The notes beneath the pieces are model-generated. The model ran no database searches, was not told the origin of the DNA, and saw only the letters and a program-made list of their open reading frames with translations. Position numbers and translations under genes: made by a program. Shown here one piece after another: positions 37,563 through 46,001 of a DNA stretch of 64,000 nt. How positions within the stretch are numbered: position 1 is the first letter of the stretch; each line of letters begins with the position of its first letter. Location of the stretch: NCBI RefSeq assembly GCF_048266785.1, contig NZ_JBLWYX010000009.1, forward strand, positions 52,325-116,324. The letters are read 5' to 3'. Source of the stretch: Marinobacter sp. (GTDB taxonomy: Bacteria > Pseudomonadota > Gammaproteobacteria > Pseudomonadales > Oleiphilaceae).

Positions 37563-37649
37563 TGGTGCTCCGGGCCGGAATCGAACCGGCACGACCGTGA
37601 GGTCGAGAGATTTTAAGTCTCTTGTGTCTACCAATTCCACCACCGGAGC
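37563..37649 (-). tRNA. tRNA-Leu (anticodon TAA)
   Basis: GCTCCGGTGGTGGAATTGGTAGACAC-AAGAGACTTAAAATCTCT-long variable arm-GGTTCGATTCC-GGAGCACCA; 87 nt with encoded CCA. Confidence 0.97.
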
Positions 37650-37706: not shown

Positions 37707-37741
37707 AAAACACCGTCAACTGGCGGTGCTGACGGCGTTTT
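37707..37741 (-). terminator. Intrinsic terminator after tsdA
   Basis: AAAACGCCGTCA-loop-TGACGGTGTTTT on the minus strand. Confidence 0.65.
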
Positions 37742-37745
37742 GGGT

Positions 37746-38705
37746 TTATTTGCTGGCAACTCCGGGGTTTTCGCCGTAGTTGTCGTGATCCCCCAATCGT
37801 TTGCCTTCTACTTCCTTGCCATAGAAGCCATCGTGGTTATGAAAGGTGTTGGCGGTGCTGTCCAGTGAGTCCTGATTGCGGCGGCGTGGGTCCTGAGGGC
37901 GCTCATGGCTGTTGACGAAGGCGGCCAGGTCCCAAGCATCCTGATTACTCAGGGAGTCGGGCTTGCCCAATGGCATATTGGCTTTGATAAATCCGGCAGC
38001 GGTATTTACGCGGTGCATACCTGCTCCCCAGTTGTAAGCTCCATCACCCCATAGAGGCGGGAAGACCACCTGCCCTGCCACCTCTTGGCCGCGGCCATCA
38101 TCACCATGGCACACAGCACATTGCTCGGTGTAGAGCTTGGCGCCGTGCTCCCGGTCATAACCGCCTTCCGGCTTTTCAAGTTTGGTGTAACCACGGCCAG
38201 GCAGGGCCTGGTTGATGGGCGCGCCCGTTGATAGCCAGTGGAAATAGGTTTCCATCGCCACCACGGTTTCATCACCGGCTTCTGGGGGAATGCCGTTCAT
38301 GGAGTAGGTAAAGCAACCCTGGAGGCGTTCACTCAGGGTATTGACCTTGTCATTTTTACCTCGGTACGCGGGATACATGCCAAAAGCTGCCCACATGGGG
38401 GCGGAGCTGGCTATACGGCCGGCGTCCAGGTGGCAGTTGACGCAGTTCTGGCCGTTAAACACGTTTTTGCCACGCAACTGCTGTGTATTTACGAACAGGT
38501 CTCGCCCCTTGCGTACCATGTCGCCGTACTGGTTGTCAGGTATATCCCGCTCTTGTGGCGGTTCAAAGGTGATCTGGCCTTCAGGTGCTGCAGGCAGCTG
38601 TTTCTGGTAGTCCACTTCAGGTTCTGCGGCGTGAACCAGTGTTGATACCATCAACACCGACAAGGAGCTCGCTGCAACCGACAAAAATGATTTGCACAAG
38701 TTCAT
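37746..38705 (-). CDS. tsdA: Thiosulfate dehydrogenase, diheme cytochrome c
   Basis: Signal peptide; CVNCH and CAVCH; heme-ligating Cys motif RLQGCFTYSMNG; PPLWG..NWGAGM. Confidence 0.88.
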   Translation of the reverse strand: MNLCKSFLSVAASSLSVLMVSTLVHAAEPEVDYQKQLPAAPEGQITFEPPQERDIPDNQYGDMVRKGRDLFVNTQQLRGKNVFNGQNCVNCHLDAGRIASSAPMWAAFGMYPAYRGKNDKVNTLSERLQGCFTYSMNGIPPEAGDETVVAMETYFHWLSTGAPINQALPGRGYTKLEKPEGGYDREHGAKLYTEQCAVCHGDDGRGQEVAGQVVFPPLWGDGAYNWGAGMHRVNTAAGFIKANMPLGKPDSLSNQDAWDLAAFVNSHERPQDPRRRNQDSLDSTANTFHNHDGFYGKEVEGKRLGDHDNYGENPGVASK

Positions 38706-39394
38706 TAACGATTCTCCTTTTCTTCGGCCTGCCCAGCCAGTTGCTCTGGCAGAGCTGCGTAGTATTCGGTGATGGCTGAGATCTGTTGTTCGCTGAGTCG
38801 GTCGGCGATTCCCTTCATCAAATGATTAGGGTCGTTATTGCGGGTGCCGTTACGCCAGGCAAGAATCTGGCTCTTCAGATAACTGGCATGTTGCCCTGCG
38901 AGGGCCGGAAACGAATTTCCCACGCCCATACCGTTGGGGCCGTGACACTGGTTGCAAGCCGGTATGAGATTATCCCAGTCACCCCGCAAGGCCAGCCACT
39001 CGCCTGGGTTGGCCGGGTCTGGCGCTTGATAAGCAACGGCGGAAACTGGTGACTGAAGGCTCTGGTAGTAGGCTGATACCGACTGGATATCGTCTTCTGT
39101 TAACGCTGTGGCAAAAGGTTGCATAATCGGGTTTTTACGTGTGCCTTTGGCGTAATCATGAAGTTGCTTGCTCAGATAATCGGCGTTAAGGCCAGCAATG
39201 TCCGGAAAGCCAGCCGCAGCATTGCCCTTGCCATCCGGTCCATGACAGGTAGTACAAGCCAGAGCGCCTGCCCCATTACCCTGTGTTGCAATGTTTTCAC
39301 CGCGTGCTGTATCTCCGGCGGCAACCGCTACACCTGTACTTAGCGCAACGGTGACTGCAAGCAGAGATAAAGCAGCTCTCGTCATTTTGGTCAT
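38705..39394 (-). CDS. tsdB: Diheme cytochrome c4-type electron acceptor
   Basis: CTTCH and CNQCH, signal peptide; TAATG coupling to tsdA; probable start ATG 39394 after GGAG. Confidence 0.82.
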   Translation of the reverse strand: MTKMTRAALSLLAVTVALSTGVAVAAGDTARGENIATQGNGAGALACTTCHGPDGKGNAAAGFPDIAGLNADYLSKQLHDYAKGTRKNPIMQPFATALTEDDIQSVSAYYQSLQSPVSAVAYQAPDPANPGEWLALRGDWDNLIPACNQCHGPNGMGVGNSFPALAGQHASYLKSQILAWRNGTRNNDPNHLMKGIADRLSEQQISAITEYYAALPEQLAGQAEEKENR

Positions 39395-39433
39395 TGGTGT
39401 GCTCCTGCCTTTGGCATATTCACGCTGAAGCAT

Positions 39434-40057
39434 TTAGCTGGGCTTCCGTGCGATCCCTTTGTAAATATAGCCGGCTATTTTCGGTGCGCTGGGCATGTAA
39501 AAATTTTCCAGTGCCGTTAGCTCAAATCCTGCATGTCGGATCAGGTCTGCGATACGGCGGTTCAGGTGGCAACCACCGGCGAGCTTTTTCCAGCCAGGTG
39601 TAATTCGGTGTTGCCATTTGCGGATGTTTTCATGGGGTGCTTCGCCGTGTTCCAGAAACAGAAGCTCCCCTCCGGGCTTCAGTACCCGCTTCATTTGCAG
39701 AAGCGCAGTGTTCCAGTCGGATATGGTGCACAGGGTGAAGGTAAGCAAAACGGTATCCACGCTGTTGTCATCCAGAGGGATTTGCTCGCCCGGCAGGCTC
39801 AGCCACTCTACGCGTATTGGCGAGCGCTTCAGGTTTGGTAACGCTTTGCGCCGCATCCCCTCAGAAGGCTCCAGCCCGTAGACGAACTCAACAGTGTCCG
39901 GATTGTAGAACTCCAGATTAATACCCGAGCCCATTCCCACCTCAAGCACGCGGCCTTTTGCCAATGGCACAAGTTGGCTGCGCAACTTCATAACCTGGCC
40001 CATTGAGCAGGCACGATCTATGATGTGTGGCAGGATTCGTTCTTCGTAAAAGCTCAT
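39434..40057 (-). CDS. mddH: Class I SAM-dependent methyltransferase, putative H2S/methanethiol S-methyltransferase (MddH/TMT1-like)
   Basis: GRVLEVGMGSGIN, DTVLLTFTLCTI, LFLEHG, GGCHLNR resemble the METTL7/TMT1-type family; context tsdBA and cydAB-cydDC. The methyltransferase call is secure; the mddH symbol is tentative. Probable start 40057. Confidence 0.6.
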   Translation of the reverse strand: MSFYEERILPHIIDRACSMGQVMKLRSQLVPLAKGRVLEVGMGSGINLEFYNPDTVEFVYGLEPSEGMRRKALPNLKRSPIRVEWLSLPGEQIPLDDNSVDTVLLTFTLCTISDWNTALLQMKRVLKPGGELLFLEHGEAPHENIRKWQHRITPGWKKLAGGCHLNRRIADLIRHAGFELTALENFYMPSAPKIAGYIYKGIARKPS

Positions 40058-40071
40058 GCTTTTCACCATAA

Positions 40072-40085
40072 TTGTTTTAAATCAA
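40072..40085. promoter_or_regulatory. Possible FNR/Anr box
   Basis: TTGTT-TTAA-ATCAA, one mismatch to TTGAT-N4-ATCAA, in the divergent methyltransferase/cydA intergenic region. Confidence 0.35.
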
Positions 40086-40241
40086 TGGGTGCGACAATCT
40101 GCCCTATCGGTTTTGCTACCATAACCAGTAGCATGTATTTTATCTGTCGGTAATAACAATATAACAATTAAAGCTAAGGCAGCGGCTGAACGGGTTTTCT
40201 TAGCTCGTTTATTGTGACGTTTACATTACCGGAGTGTTCCT

Positions 40242-41672
40242 ATGGAACTAGATCCTCTCATCCTATCGCGAATCCAGTTCGCGTTCGTCGTGTCATTTCA
40301 CGCCATTTTCCCGGTGTTTACCATCGGCCTCGCCTCCTATATTGCAGTACTTGAGGGGCTTTCGTTCAAAACGAAAAACCCGGTATGGATGAAGCTTTCT
40401 TCGTTCTGGACCAAGGTGTTCGCCGTAGTCTTTGGCATGGGCGTTGTCTCGGGTATTGTGATGTCGTTCCAGTTCGGCACCAACTGGAGTAACTTCGCCC
40501 AGGCTTCGGCTAACTTTCTCGGCCCGATGCTGAGCTATGAGGTAATTACGGCCTTCTTCCTCGAAGCAGCTTTCCTCGGCGTACTACTGTTCGGTCGGGA
40601 TCGTGTCCCTGCGGGTGTTCACCTGTTTGCGGCGGTTATGGTCGCGACCGGTACATTCATTTCTTCGTTCTGGATTCTTTCAGCAAACAGCTGGATGCAC
40701 ACACCTGCCGGCACTGAACTGCGGGATGGGGTGTTCTTCGTGACCTCCTGGAGCGAGGCAATCTTTAACCCGTCCTTCAAGTACCGTTTTACCCACATGG
40801 TTATGGCCTCGTTCCTTACCGGCGGCTTCGTCGTCGCTGGCGTTAGCGCCTGGTATTTGCTGAAAGGGCGTGAAGTAGAAGCCAACCGCAAGGCACTCTC
40901 GATGTGCCTGTGGTTACTCTTGTTTCTTGCCCCCACGCAGGCGGTCGTTGGTGATTTCCACGGGCTTAATACCCTTGAACACCAGCCCATGAAAGTGGCC
41001 GCAATGGAAGGCAACTGGGAAACGTCCCGGAATGTTCCTTTGCTGTTGTTCGCCATTCCTGACCAGGAAAACCAGACTAACCTTTTTGAAATTGGTATTC
41101 CGAGCGTCGCCAGTCTTATTCTGACGCACGACTGGAATGGAGAGGTGCCAGGCCTTGAGGAGGTTTCCATAGAAAATCAGCCACCTGTGGCCATTGTGTT
41201 CTGGTCGTTCCGGGTTATGGTCGGCCTCGGATTGCTGATGATCCTGTTCGCCGTTGTTGGTCTGGCACTGCGGGGTGGCGATCGTTTTTGGCGAACCCGC
41301 TGGTTCCTTCAGGGGATGCGTTTTATGAGCGTTGCGCCCTTCATTGCAGTGCTCGCGGGCTGGTTTGTGACCGAAACTGGTCGTGCGCCGTGGCTGGTGT
41401 ACGGCATGATGACCCAGGCGGAAGCGGTAACACCGTCGCTCACCGGCGGCATGGCACTGTTCACTCTGATTGGTTATGTGGTGGTTTACTCTATGGTGTT
41501 CTCAGCCGGCGTTTACTACCTGATGCGCGTGCTCTATGTAGGGCTTGAGGATGATTACGACGAAGCGCCGGAACAGGCCGAACGGCCGAAGCGGCCTCTT
41601 TCTGCCAGTCATGTGCCCTTTGAAGTGCGTGAAGGCTCAAAATCCAATCCAGCCAATCAGGGAGATCACTAA
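40242..41672 (+). CDS. cydA: Cytochrome bd ubiquinol oxidase subunit I (CioA-type)
   Basis: SRIQFAFVVSFHAIF, FQFGTNW, EVITAFFLEA, QPMKVAAMEG, GWFVTETGRAPW. Confidence 0.96.
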   Translation: MELDPLILSRIQFAFVVSFHAIFPVFTIGLASYIAVLEGLSFKTKNPVWMKLSSFWTKVFAVVFGMGVVSGIVMSFQFGTNWSNFAQASANFLGPMLSYEVITAFFLEAAFLGVLLFGRDRVPAGVHLFAAVMVATGTFISSFWILSANSWMHTPAGTELRDGVFFVTSWSEAIFNPSFKYRFTHMVMASFLTGGFVVAGVSAWYLLKGREVEANRKALSMCLWLLLFLAPTQAVVGDFHGLNTLEHQPMKVAAMEGNWETSRNVPLLLFAIPDQENQTNLFEIGIPSVASLILTHDWNGEVPGLEEVSIENQPPVAIVFWSFRVMVGLGLLMILFAVVGLALRGGDRFWRTRWFLQGMRFMSVAPFIAVLAGWFVTETGRAPWLVYGMMTQAEAVTPSLTGGMALFTLIGYVVVYSMVFSAGVYYLMRVLYVGLEDDYDEAPEQAERPKRPLSASHVPFEVREGSKSNPANQGDH

Positions 41673-41674
41673 TT

Positions 41675-42676
41675 ATGGAACACTTTGATCTTGTTTTGAT
41701 CTGGGCATTTATCATCGGTTTTGGCGTGATCATGTATGTCTTGATGGACGGCTTCGATCTGGGCGTGGGAATCCTGTTCCCTTTCGCTCCATCGGAGCAG
41801 GATCGGGATACGATGATGAACACTGTTGCACCCGTATGGGACGGCAATGAAACCTGGCTGGTGCTCGGCGGCGCAGGGCTTCTGGGAGCCTTCCCTTTGG
41901 TCTACAGCATTTTGCTGCCGGCCTTGTACATTGGCGTGTTCCTGATGCTGTCAGGCCTGATTTTCCGCGGCATTGCGTTCGAGTTCCGCTTTAAGGCGCG
42001 CAGCTCGCGTTATCTGTGGAACTGGGCTTTCGCCGGAGGCTCCACTCTTGCAGCGTTTGCACAGGGTGTGGTCGTGGGCACCTACATTCAGGGTTATGAG
42101 ACAGCTAATGGCGTGTTCACCGGCGGCGCTCTGGACTGGCTCACTCCCTTTACGGTGCTGACGGGTCTCGGGCTAATTGCGGGTTACGCTTTGCTGGGCT
42201 CTACCTGGCTGATCCTGAAGACTGAAGGCCGGCTACAGGAATGGGCTTACAAGATCACCTTGCCCCTGCTCACAGCAGTGCTGGTGGTCTTCGGTATTAT
42301 CAGCGTATGGACTCCGTTCATTGACGATATGGTGCGTGACCGCTGGTTCAGCAACCTGAGTGTAATCTGGGTGCTGCCAATACTGACTCTGCTGTGTGCT
42401 TTCCAGATTTTTCGGACTGTTCGCAAAAGGAAGGAAGGCATGCCTTTTGTAGCCACTATGGGGCTGTTTATAACCACCTATCTGGGGCTTATTGTCAGTC
42501 GCTGGCCATACCTGGTGCCGCCTGATTATACCGTGTGGGATGCCGCCTCGGCTTACAACTCGCAGATGTTCCTGCTGATAGGCCTGGTGATTGTGATTCC
42601 TTTTGTGCTGGCTTACACAGCCTGGACCTATTGGGTATTCCGGGGCAAGGTACGTGCTGGCGAAGGTTATCACTAA
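41675..42676 (+). CDS. cydB: Cytochrome bd oxidase subunit II (CioB-type)
   Basis: MDGFDLGVG, PVWDGNETWLV, FRGIAFEFR. Confidence 0.96.
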   Translation: MEHFDLVLIWAFIIGFGVIMYVLMDGFDLGVGILFPFAPSEQDRDTMMNTVAPVWDGNETWLVLGGAGLLGAFPLVYSILLPALYIGVFLMLSGLIFRGIAFEFRFKARSSRYLWNWAFAGGSTLAAFAQGVVVGTYIQGYETANGVFTGGALDWLTPFTVLTGLGLIAGYALLGSTWLILKTEGRLQEWAYKITLPLLTAVLVVFGIISVWTPFIDDMVRDRWFSNLSVIWVLPILTLLCAFQIFRTVRKRKEGMPFVATMGLFITTYLGLIVSRWPYLVPPDYTVWDAASAYNSQMFLLIGLVIVIPFVLAYTAWTYWVFRGKVRAGEGYH

Positions 42677-44392
42677 GTGACCGAAATGCAGGTCGAGAGC
42701 AGTGCTGTAAAGCGCTGGCTCTCGGGGCTTGCCAGCGGAAACCGGCGCTGGATTCAGGGCTCAGTTGCTGCCGGCACCGTCGCCGGCGTCGCTACCATCG
42801 TTCAGATGATATTTCTGGCCCGGATTGTTCATCTTGGTGTCATTGAGAAAGCGTCAGCCACAGTACTGGCGCCTCTTTTTGCCGGCCTTGTTCTGGCAAT
42901 CGTTTCTCGCGCAGTTGCCCAGGGCGTCCAGACCCACCTCGCGGCAAGATGCAGTGAACAGGTGCGTCGCACCGCACGCCGGCAGATTCACCGGCACTGG
43001 CGCAACAGCGGCCCCCTCTTACTGGGGCAAACGTCTGCTGGCAGTCTGGCGCGGGAGTGGATTGATCACGTTGATGCCCTGCACGGCTACTTTTCCCGCT
43101 TCCTTCCGCAGATGACGCTGTCTCTTATTGTGCCTTTGATGATTCTGGCGCTTGTGTTCTATCTGGACTGGCTCGCTGGAATTTTCCTGCTACTTTCGGC
43201 CCCGCTGATTCCCCTTTTTATGGCGCTTGTAGGAATGGGAGCTGAGAAGCTTAACCAGCAGCATTTCGAGATCATCAGCCGGCTGTCTGGCCAGTTCCTG
43301 GATAAGGTTCGAGGGCTGACCACGTTACAGTTGTTCGGGCAAACTGACAGCGCTGCAGACTTGATCCAACAGCGGTCAGATCACTACCGCAGGATTACGC
43401 TGAAAACGCTTCGTATTGCGTTTCTGTCATCGGCGGTTCTGGAGTTTTTCGCATCAGTGGCCATCGCCGTTATTGCCATTTATATCGGTTTTGGTCTTCT
43501 GGGGTATATTACCTATGGGCCATCCTCGGATCTCACGCTGTTTTCCGGCCTGTTGATTCTGCTGCTTGCGCCAGAGTTCTTTCAGCCGTTGCGCACGCTT
43601 TCCCAGTACTATCACGACCGCGCTGCTGCTCTTGGCGCTGGTGCAGAGATTCTCGCAAGGCTAGGTGATAAACCAGAACCCAATCCCTTGGCGGGCGGCA
43701 ACGAAGACACAATCGACTACAGGCCTTCAGTCAGCAATAAGGTTACGCGCCGCGAGGGGATTGAACTGAATTCTGTATCGCTTGCACTCCGCGCAGACCA
43801 CCCAATCCTCAGTGATGTCTCGCTGACCATCGGTAAAGGTGAGGTTATTGCTCTCACTGGCCCTTCGGGGAGTGGCAAGTCCACCCTCTTGCATCTTCTG
43901 GCGGGTTTTCTTACGCCGGATAACGGCGACATCGATCTATTTGGTAAACAGCCGGGATGCTTCGCCTTTGGCTGGCTTGGCCAGAGTGGTTTTCTCGTTC
44001 ACGGAACCTGGGCCGATAACCTTCGGCTCACCAGCCCGGATGTATCCGATGTGGCTATTGAAACCGCGCTGCGCAACGTCGGTCTTGGCCCTCTGCTGGA
44101 TAGCCGCAAGGAAGGTATTTTCAGCAAGGTTTCAGAGGATGGCCAGGGTCTTTCCGGAGGCCAGGCACGACGCCTGAGCCTGGCGAGAATTTTCGTGGCG
44201 GATTACGACATTATCCTTCTCGATGAACCCACGGCCGGGCTCGACTGCGACAGTGAGATCTTTGTGCTGGAGGCGCTGCACAAGCTGGCGCTGGCAGGCA
44301 AAACACTGATTTTCTCCACCCATCACCACGCGCTTTTGGCTTTGGCTAACCGGGTGCTTTTGGTCTCTGGCGGGGAGGTGACAGATGTCTGA
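42677..44392 (+). CDS. cydD: Thiol-reductant ABC exporter subunit CydD
   Basis: TLRIAFLSSAVLEFF, LLAPEFFQPLR, GPSGSGKST, LSGGQARR. Confidence 0.95.
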   Translation: MTEMQVESSAVKRWLSGLASGNRRWIQGSVAAGTVAGVATIVQMIFLARIVHLGVIEKASATVLAPLFAGLVLAIVSRAVAQGVQTHLAARCSEQVRRTARRQIHRHWRNSGPLLLGQTSAGSLAREWIDHVDALHGYFSRFLPQMTLSLIVPLMILALVFYLDWLAGIFLLLSAPLIPLFMALVGMGAEKLNQQHFEIISRLSGQFLDKVRGLTTLQLFGQTDSAADLIQQRSDHYRRITLKTLRIAFLSSAVLEFFASVAIAVIAIYIGFGLLGYITYGPSSDLTLFSGLLILLLAPEFFQPLRTLSQYYHDRAAALGAGAEILARLGDKPEPNPLAGGNEDTIDYRPSVSNKVTRREGIELNSVSLALRADHPILSDVSLTIGKGEVIALTGPSGSGKSTLLHLLAGFLTPDNGDIDLFGKQPGCFAFGWLGQSGFLVHGTWADNLRLTSPDVSDVAIETALRNVGLGPLLDSRKEGIFSKVSEDGQGLSGGQARRLSLARIFVADYDIILLDEPTAGLDCDSEIFVLEALHKLALAGKTLIFSTHHHALLALANRVLLVSGGEVTDV

Positions 44393-46001
44393 ACTAAAAC
44401 CCTGGCTAAAGTTGATCTATGCACGCCCTGGAAGGCTTTTTATCGGCGCCTTGCTGATGCTGGCCGCCCTGCTCTCGGGTCTGGGGCTGTTGGCGCTCTC
44501 TGGCTGGTTTATCACTGAAACGGCACTGGTTGGCCTTATGCTAGCGGCCAGCCTGCCAGCCACCATCAACTTGTATGTACCTGGCGGCGGCATACGGTTT
44601 TTTGCGGTTTCGCGTACGGTCTCCCGTTATCTGGAGCGGCTGTATAACCACGATACGGTGTTGAGGCTCTTAACCGATATTCGTGTTGCGCTGTTCCGCA
44701 AACTGGCCGCTGCCGGCCGCGGCCAAAGGCGCGAACTGACGGGCGCTCAGTGGCTGTCCCGGTTGACCAACGATGTTGATGCGCTGGATACACTGTACTT
44801 GCGCCTGATCGCTCCCGCTGCGCTTGCCGCATTTGTCACCCTGCTCATAATTGTTCTGGCAGCGGTACTTTTTGATAGTGTGATCGCGATCGGAATCGCG
44901 CTGATACTCGGAGTCGCATTTCTGTTGGCGACGCTGGCTGTCTACCTGCGTACCGCAAAGATTGCGTCGCGCCAGAGTGATCAGCAAGAATCTCTGCGTA
45001 CCGCAGTTATTGAACACCTGGAGGGCTTTGCTGAACTGACCGCCGCTGGCCGCACCGGCAAACACGGTGCATGGCTTCTGCGTCAGGCGCACCAGTCCTC
45101 ATCCGAGCAGGTAAAGGCAGATTCCCGCGTTGGCTGGCACCAGGCCGGTTCGAATTTGCTGATTAACCTGGCCGCAGTATTTGCGCTCTGGAGCGGCTTT
45201 GCGCTGTTTCGCTTGGGCGTGATTTCCGGGCCGGTCCTGGTTCTACTGCCTATCGCACTGCTTGGGCTCGCTGAAGTCTACGGCATGCTGCCGGAAGCTT
45301 TTGGTAGGCTGGGTGCTACGCAAGCTTCTGCCGCTCGCCTGAACCGGGATTGCAGGGAAGATGATTCCAAAGTTTCCGCAGGGAGCATTGACCTGCCTGA
45401 GGGCTCCGCCCTGGTGGCGAACGATCTAACGGTGAAATATCCTCAAAACGCGCCGCTTTTCACGCACTTTGATTTGCAGATAAAAACAGGCGAACGAGTG
45501 GGTATTCTGGGGCATTCCGGAAGTGGCAAATCGTCCCTGGCAGATGTTTTCTCAGGACTTTTGGCACCTTCAGGTGGGGCCTGCGCCAACATACCCTGCG
45601 CCTATCTCACACAGAAAACCGTGTTGTTTGAAGATACCTTGCGGGCCAATCTGTTATTGGGTTCGCCCGATGCAAGCGAAGCGGAACTTTGGCGGATTCT
45701 GGAAATGGTTGACCTGGCTGAACGGTTTCGTTCAGAGCTTGATCAACTCGATACCTGGCTGGGGAGTTCCGGTAGCCGGCTTTCCGGCGGCGAGGCACGA
45801 CGTGTTGCCCTTGCCCGGGTGCTTTTGAGCCCTGCCCCTCTGCTGCTTCTGGACGAACCGTTTACCGGGGTGGATAAGGTCACAAGAGAAAAGATTACCT
45901 GGCAAATTGATGCCTGGCTTGAAGGCAGAACAGTTATCAGCCTGGCACACGGTCCAGATGCCCTGCCGGGCACCGACCGCGTGATTCAGTTGGGGGTTTA
46001 A
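44385..46001 (+). CDS. cydC: Thiol-reductant ABC exporter subunit CydC
   Basis: LLALSGWFI, IRFFAVSRTVSRYLERLYNHD, LSGGEARR. Confidence 0.95.
   Translation: MSELKPWLKLIYARPGRLFIGALLMLAALLSGLGLLALSGWFITETALVGLMLAASLPATINLYVPGGGIRFFAVSRTVSRYLERLYNHDTVLRLLTDIRVALFRKLAAAGRGQRRELTGAQWLSRLTNDVDALDTLYLRLIAPAALAAFVTLLIIVLAAVLFDSVIAIGIALILGVAFLLATLAVYLRTAKIASRQSDQQESLRTAVIEHLEGFAELTAAGRTGKHGAWLLRQAHQSSSEQVKADSRVGWHQAGSNLLINLAAVFALWSGFALFRLGVISGPVLVLLPIALLGLAEVYGMLPEAFGRLGATQASAARLNRDCREDDSKVSAGSIDLPEGSALVANDLTVKYPQNAPLFTHFDLQIKTGERVGILGHSGSGKSSLADVFSGLLAPSGGACANIPCAYLTQKTVLFEDTLRANLLLGSPDASEAELWRILEMVDLAERFRSELDQLDTWLGSSGSRLSGGEARRVALARVLLSPAPLLLLDEPFTGVDKVTREKITWQIDAWLEGRTVISLAHGPDALPGTDRVIQLGV

Follow-up and report, generated by a model that had tools for sequence, protein, structure and literature searches.

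A gene divergent from cydABDC in Marinobacter is an orthologue of mddH and very probably encodes an H2S and methanethiol S-methyltransferase

Introduction

What does the small class I methyltransferase encoded between cytochrome bd genes and a pair of cytochrome c genes in this Marinobacter genome methylate? A preliminary description of the window (the whole stretch of DNA analysed here, 64,000 nucleotides long) had proposed, from four short motifs and from the sulfur genes on its flanks, an MddH-type enzyme that makes dimethyl sulfide (DMS) from H2S and methanethiol (MeSH). MddH is a cytosolic, SAM-dependent S-methyltransferase of H2S and MeSH (Zhang et al. 2024, Nat Microbiol; PMC11445057), first found in Halomonas alimentaria EF61 (WP_013333065.1) (PMC11445057). 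The enzyme is regarded as a substantial source of DMS in the sea that does not depend on DMSP; DMS is a climate-active gas. We asked how closely the window's protein is related to MddH enzymes of demonstrated activity, which other functions could be assigned to it, and what its neighbours add.

The open reading frame and its conserved residues

The open reading frame is real, and it holds all four motifs where the preliminary description had placed them. Its features are as follows.

39434..40057, minus strand: mddH, 207 aa, by orthology a cytosolic class I SAM-dependent H2S/methanethiol S-methyltransferase
39917..39949, minus strand: VLEVGMGSGIN, residues 37-47, SAM-binding motif I (E39, G41-x-G43-x-G45)
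39869..39871, minus strand: Glu63 (in GLEPS), the acidic residue that ends strand 2 and should bind the ribose of SAM
39722..39736, minus strand: TLCTI, residues 108-112, with the family-invariant Cys110
39644..39658, minus strand: FLEHG, residues 134-138, with E136-H137-G138 retained in 95-99% of rows of the family alignment
39557..39577, minus strand: GGCHLNR, residues 161-167 (G162, C163, R167), within a probable substrate lid

The stop codon occupies 39434-39436 of the minus strand (ORF list). The longest frame on that strand starts at an ATG at 40069 and gives 211 aa down to 39434, four residues more than the start at 40057, which appears to be the more likely one; homologues and NCBI-derived records (P0150) use this second ATG, giving the 207-aa form with the N-terminus MSFYEE. 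The product has a predicted mass of 23.5 kDa and is encoded by a single-copy gene. Like members of the family, it is a compact soluble protein in the range of about 205-210 aa, with neither signal peptide nor membrane helices: the maximum Kyte-Doolittle hydropathy over any 19-residue window is 1.19, and therefore no membrane helix is expected. Pfam assigns it generic class I methyltransferase domains (Methyltransf_11, Methyltransf_25 and Methyltransf_23).

Conservation was evaluated across 107 aligned members of the family, almost all of which represent clusters at 50% identity. At least 95% of the rows keep P10, R26, G35, E39, G41, G43, G45, Y51 and D101, and likewise C110, R124, L126, G130, E136, H137, G138, Q149, G162, C163 and G201. 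More specifically, C110 is retained in 99% of rows, G162 in 95%, C163 in 97% and R167 in 93%, while the column of Glu63 is divided between E (44%) and D (55%). The four motifs first quoted thus coincide, in these 107 rows, with the most constrained positions of the family and are not chance matches. GxGxG is the SAM motif of both MddH and TMT1, and Glu63 of MddH replaces Asp98 of TMT1A (PMC11445057). For C110, H137 and C163, it is conservation that points to functional roles.

The AlphaFold2 model (pLDDT 78, pTM 0.79) is a single alpha/beta domain of the Rossmann type with the class I methyltransferase fold. Two segments have low confidence, residues 1-16 and 148-163; since the second, which contains the GGCH lid, has a pLDDT below 50, the geometry of the lid is not modelled reliably. 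No entry for MddH or TMT1 was found in the PDB by sequence search.

Relationship to ratified MddH enzymes

Eighty loci were retrieved from species-representative genomes. Nearly all belong to Marinobacter, and M. litoralis Sw-45 (L066) as well as Halopseudomonas (Pseudomonas) pelagia CL-AP6 (L014) are among the genomes represented. The proteins of these Marinobacter-type loci are 73-97% identical to that of the window (tblastn E values of 1e-105 to 1e-139), the nearest genomes being a Marinobacter MAG (L001, 97%) and M. maritimus CK47 (95%). By exact-sequence look-up, the L066 and L014 frames correspond to WP_114333749.1 and WP_022964284.1, both of which appear among the ratified MddH proteins in the supplement of PMC12904073. 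The window's protein aligns without gaps to both of them, with 161 of 203 residues identical to the M. litoralis enzyme, MlMddH (79%, E 3e-127), and 177 of 207 identical to the H. pelagia enzyme (86%, E 2e-138).

The family criterion is an identity above 45% and an E value of at most 1e-50 to H. alimentaria EF61 MddH (PMC11445057). As MlMddH is 60.3% identical to the EF61 protein (PMC11445057), the window's protein is expected to lie above 45% as well; identity to two ratified members is the stricter test. Ten candidate genes for proteins above that identity to the founder were cloned, and every one of them conferred activity on E. coli (PMC11445057). Both sequence features of the family, G41-M-G43-S-G45 and E63 (207-aa numbering), are present. 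A FastTree phylogeny was built from 185 rows, of which 79 were Marinobacter-type sequences and 103 were representatives of the family; the others were a homologue from a Halomonas plasmid and, as outgroup, UbiE and BioC of this genome. The window's protein, L066 and L014 fall in a single clade, which comprises 79 rows, has support 99 and lies apart from the 103 other representatives, UbiE and BioC.

The window's gene is thus an orthologue of two active enzymes, carries all family-invariant residues and occupies the same locus as the M. litoralis gene. We consider it highly likely, on this orthology, that its product is MddH and would convert H2S to MeSH and MeSH to DMS. The MddH-type assignment, first proposed before any alignment had been run, is borne out by the relationship to ratified enzymes within one clade.

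The cyd genes and the divergent control region

Upstream, mddH faces the genes of a cytochrome bd-type oxidase across a short intergenic region.

40242..46001, plus strand: cydA, cydB, cydD and cydC, cytochrome bd-type oxidase and thiol-exporting ABC transporter, divergent from mddH
40058..40241, between the divergent genes: mddH/cydA intergenic region, with a conserved block and an FNR/CRP-like box
40072-40085: FNR/CRP-like box TTGTTTTAAATCAA, at -28 to -15 of the mddH ATG, with one mismatch to TTGAT-N4-ATCAA

CydB, CydD and CydC score above their NCBIfam cut-offs and CydA below the E. coli-type cut-offs. Adjacency of mddH and cyd was found in 74 of the 80 Marinobacter-type loci, M. litoralis included, whose mddH has been reported to adjoin cydABCD (PMC11445057). 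In an order-wide sample, the adjacency was present in all 13 genomes of the window's family and in none of the 16 outside it. Because it is confined to one family, the adjacency is weak evidence of functional coupling and may simply be inherited.

A box with one mismatch occurs in 52 of 79 sequences, exactly at -28 of the mddH ATG in 45 of them and at -27, -29 or -43 in the others. In the window, cydA follows about 155 bp downstream of the box. The conservation profile shows this putative box embedded in a conserved block, TTGTCGCACCC-box-TTATGGTGA, which may also be the mddH promoter. A promoter and terminator scan of the locus returned nothing exceeding the shuffled expectation.

The tsdBA cassette downstream

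On the other side, mddH is followed on the same strand by two cytochrome c genes and a tRNA gene.

38705..39433, minus strand: tsdB-like dihaem cytochrome c, matching the TsdB half of 5lo9, a TsdBA fusion (E 1.5e-41)
37746..38705, minus strand: tsdA-like thiosulfate dehydrogenase, matching the TsdA half of 5lo9 (E 2.3e-83; Pfam SoxA-TsdA_cyt-c)
37563..37649, minus strand: tRNA-Leu(taa) (ARAGORN)

The structure 5lo9 is the Marichromatium TsdBA fusion, and by these matches tsdB and tsdA correspond to its two halves. The tsdA product also matches TsdA of A. vinosum (4wq7 and others, about 1e-47), and the cysteine of its QGCF motif aligns with the same motif in 5lo9. The true start of tsdB is likely M14 at 39394, which would leave a gap of 39 bp after the mddH stop codon; the signal-peptide-like N-terminus of the product starts at MTKMTRAALSLL. 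The homology identifies both as true genes of thiosulfate dehydrogenase.

The gene directly after mddH in most Marinobacter is that of tRNA-Leu(taa) (blastn of the window against L001, L011, L020 and L066). In the closest relative, L001, which is without tsdBA, homology to the window extends precisely as far as the mddH stop codon and is found again from 28 bp beyond tsdA, shortly before tRNA-Leu(taa). The tsdB-tsdA cassette of 1.7 kb thus fills window positions 37718-39433, exactly between the mddH stop codon and the tRNA gene. Genes for tsdBA stand at the mddH site in only four of the 80 loci, in three of which they are 38-48% identical (L003-L005). These comparisons identify tsdBA as a lineage-specific cassette gained or lost at this site. 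No anomaly of base composition was found over tsdBA, and composition gives no hint of the origin of the cassette. The argument drawn earlier from the flanking sulfur genes is therefore weak: the thiosulfate dehydrogenase genes are genuine, but tsdBA in so few loci and a cyd adjacency confined to one family leave it little weight for the substrate.

Alternative readings

The cassette invites the reading that mddH is the first gene of a sulfur-oxidation operon, mddH-tsdB-tsdA, and that its function is tied to thiosulfate metabolism and not to stand-alone thiol detoxification. The gap between mddH and tsdB is 0 to 39 bp, no terminator-like site was found between them on the minus strand, the start of tsdA overlaps the tsdB stop codon by one base, and M. 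maritimus CK47 carries the same arrangement. Co-transcription of mddH with tsdBA is plausible because of the short gap and the lack of a terminator-like site. Against the functional tie stand the rarity of tsdBA at this site and its absence from L001, the different compartments of cytosolic MddH and periplasmic TsdAB, which have no substrate in common, and the characterised M. litoralis mddH, which has no adjoining tsdBA. We regard this reading as rather improbable. It is similarly doubtful that, in a M. maritimus-like lineage, the mddH-tsdBA unit has a conserved control region, FNR-like box included, in common with the sulfide-tolerant cytochrome bd and the CydDC thiol exporter. If the genes were co-regulated in this way, the locus would be an island against sulfide and thiol stress, linking the methylation of sulfide in the cytoplasm to thiosulfate oxidation in the periplasm and to respiration that resists sulfide. 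The synteny found here weakens the idea of a wider sulfide-handling island.

Two further readings concern the enzyme itself. Some database names would make it a quinone (UbiE/MenG) or phospholipid (PmtA) methyltransferase, and this has hardly any likelihood left. Homologues are labelled 'UbiE' or 'phospholipid methyltransferase', Pfam gives a weak Ubie_methyltran match of 45.8 bits, and Foldseek, which otherwise returned generic class I methyltransferases, places bacterial PmtA (8ys9) as the nearest solved structure with a TM score of 0.69-0.70. That structure is only 19-21% identical, a likeness at the level of the fold. The protein scores 44.5 bits against the UbiE/MenG model TIGR01934 (cut-off 158) and 40.7 bits against the PmtA model NF045882 (cut-off 390); a true UbiE of its own, with 444 bits (cut-off 378), is encoded elsewhere in the genome, beside ubiJ; and a Vibrio UbiE used as control had no Mdd activity (PMC11445057). 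With scores below both model cut-offs and a separate UbiE in the genome, a UbiE or PmtA identity is effectively refuted. A separate true BioC is also encoded. Clustering with quinone or phospholipid methyltransferases, which the preliminary description had named as speaking against its proposal, was not seen: the protein groups with MddH and falls far below the UbiE and PmtA cut-offs. It is quite unlikely that the window's protein, though of the MddH family, has a real physiological substrate other than H2S and MeSH, such as hydrogen selenide, methaneselenol or a short alkyl thiol, with DMS as a side activity. Purified MlMddH shows some turnover of ethanethiol and 1-propanethiol and none of GSH, Cys, CoA or CoM (PMC11445057); its Km is 0.22-0.23 mM for H2S and MeSH (PMC11445057), its kcat 0.16 per s for H2S and 0.08 per s for MeSH (PMC11445057), and both the low turnover and the weak knockout phenotype would fit another substrate. 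Deletion of mddH in Halomonas, on the other hand, abolished all MeSH-dependent DMS production (PMC11445057), MeSH raised transcription of the gene 2.5-fold (PMC11445057), and selenium substrates are absent from the assays in the papers considered.

Proposed mechanism and methanethiol metabolism

In the MddH reading, which we prefer, a methyl group of SAM would be transferred to HS- to give MeSH and a second one to CH3S- to give DMS, with release of S-adenosylhomocysteine. Other short alkyl thiols would likely be methylated too, and no metal cofactor should be needed, MlMddH being metal-independent (PMC11445057). The loop formed by E39 and G41-x-G43-x-G45 would hold SAM together with Glu63, while C110, E136-H137-G138 and G162-C163/R167 probably shape a small thiol pocket beneath a flexible lid. 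In the cell, the enzyme would most likely dispose of methanethiol and sulfide, both toxic, in the form of DMS, which is volatile and harmless. We infer the activity of the window's protein, the roles of its individual residues and its physiological role from these relationships.

The physiological substrate and role are less certain, because the published kinetics are slow, the Km lies far above seawater concentrations and the phenotype of the Halomonas knockout is mild (PMC11445057). The published physiology suggests a modest part in methanethiol detoxification (PMC11445057).

A profile search of the genome for an internal source of MeSH found no dedicated methionine gamma-lyase above the TIGR01328 cut-off. 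The same genome contains a match of 378 bits to SBP56, the Pfam family of the methanethiol oxidase MtoX, at G000:C2:40345-41256 (L117). This match covers model positions 153-453 only, in an open frame of 316 aa, so the gene may be truncated or mis-started; its product may compete with MddH for methanethiol.

Distribution and annotation

Of 401 genomes sampled across the order, 162 contain homologues with an E value of at most 1e-30, among them 12 of 12 from the window's family and 12 of 12 Spongiibacteraceae. The homologues of the latter (Spongiibacter, Zhongshania and Litorivivens) show 60-68% identity.

Homologues also occur on plasmids. A tblastn search against plasmids identified an MddH-family gene, WP_035557867.1, with 47% identity, on a 314-kb plasmid of Halomonas sp. 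KO116 (NZ_CP011053.1; region L084 1288-6627). Genes encoding a sulfurtransferase of the TIGR01244 family, a hydrolase with the MBL fold and two small membrane proteins lie about 2-4.7 kb upstream of it; together they suggest that the neighbourhood handles sulfide. Megaplasmids of the pSymA type in Sinorhizobium meliloti (matches H6-H40) carry full-length homologues of about 46% identity, many of these rows having no annotated gene beneath them.

Neither the window's protein nor purified MlMddH reaches the cut-off of any model in NCBIfam release 20.0. Automated annotation cannot name MddH because this release contains no MddH model, and source databases label such proteins "class I SAM-dependent methyltransferase", "UbiE" or "phospholipid methyltransferase"; the earlier remark that annotation hides the function was justified. 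[quoted passage not shown] The MddH family, its type enzyme from Marinobacter and the adjacency to cydABCD were all described in 2024 (PMC11445057); by its sequence, the window's mddH is a straightforward and unremarkable Marinobacter orthologue that opens no new biological question.

Comparison with known systems

The closest characterised counterpart is MlMddH, from the same genus, with 206 against 207 aa, the same gapless identity of 79% given above, all family-invariant residues and a gene likewise divergent from cydABDC. The two proteins differ by 42 substitutions, none of them at an invariant position, and the M. litoralis locus differs in having no tsdBA downstream. The H. pelagia CL-AP6 enzyme, 86% identical over all 207 residues, has demonstrated activity in E. 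coli (PMC11445057). Unlike the window's gene, it is encoded in a 753-bp patch of Marinobacter-like DNA without cyd neighbours. This patch (L014 6882-7634) has 96-97% DNA identity to Marinobacter (L013 and L019; 97% to a Marinobacter MAG) and non-homologous flanks, and it looks like a recent gene-sized transfer from that genus. The founding enzyme of H. alimentaria EF61 belongs to the same family by transitivity through MlMddH and has both GxGxG and Glu63, but its gene lies in a metal-resistance neighbourhood and not beside cyd (PMC11445057).

Human TMT1A and TMT1B (METTL7A/B) carry out the same chemistry, the SAM-dependent S-methylation of H2S and alkyl thiols. As described in PMC11445057, they share 31-34% identity and similar predicted folds with MddH, which lacks the extended N-terminal helix of TMT1 and has Glu where TMT1A has Asp98 (PMC11445057). 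Compared with TMT1 through that published account, MddH is best described as a distant relative that works like TMT1, not as a member of it. MddA catalyses the same reaction and has the same proposed detoxifying role, but is an unrelated integral membrane protein. MddM1 and MddM2 of Actinomycetota share with MddH the reaction, the proposed detoxifying role and the fold, and form distinct actinobacterial clades.
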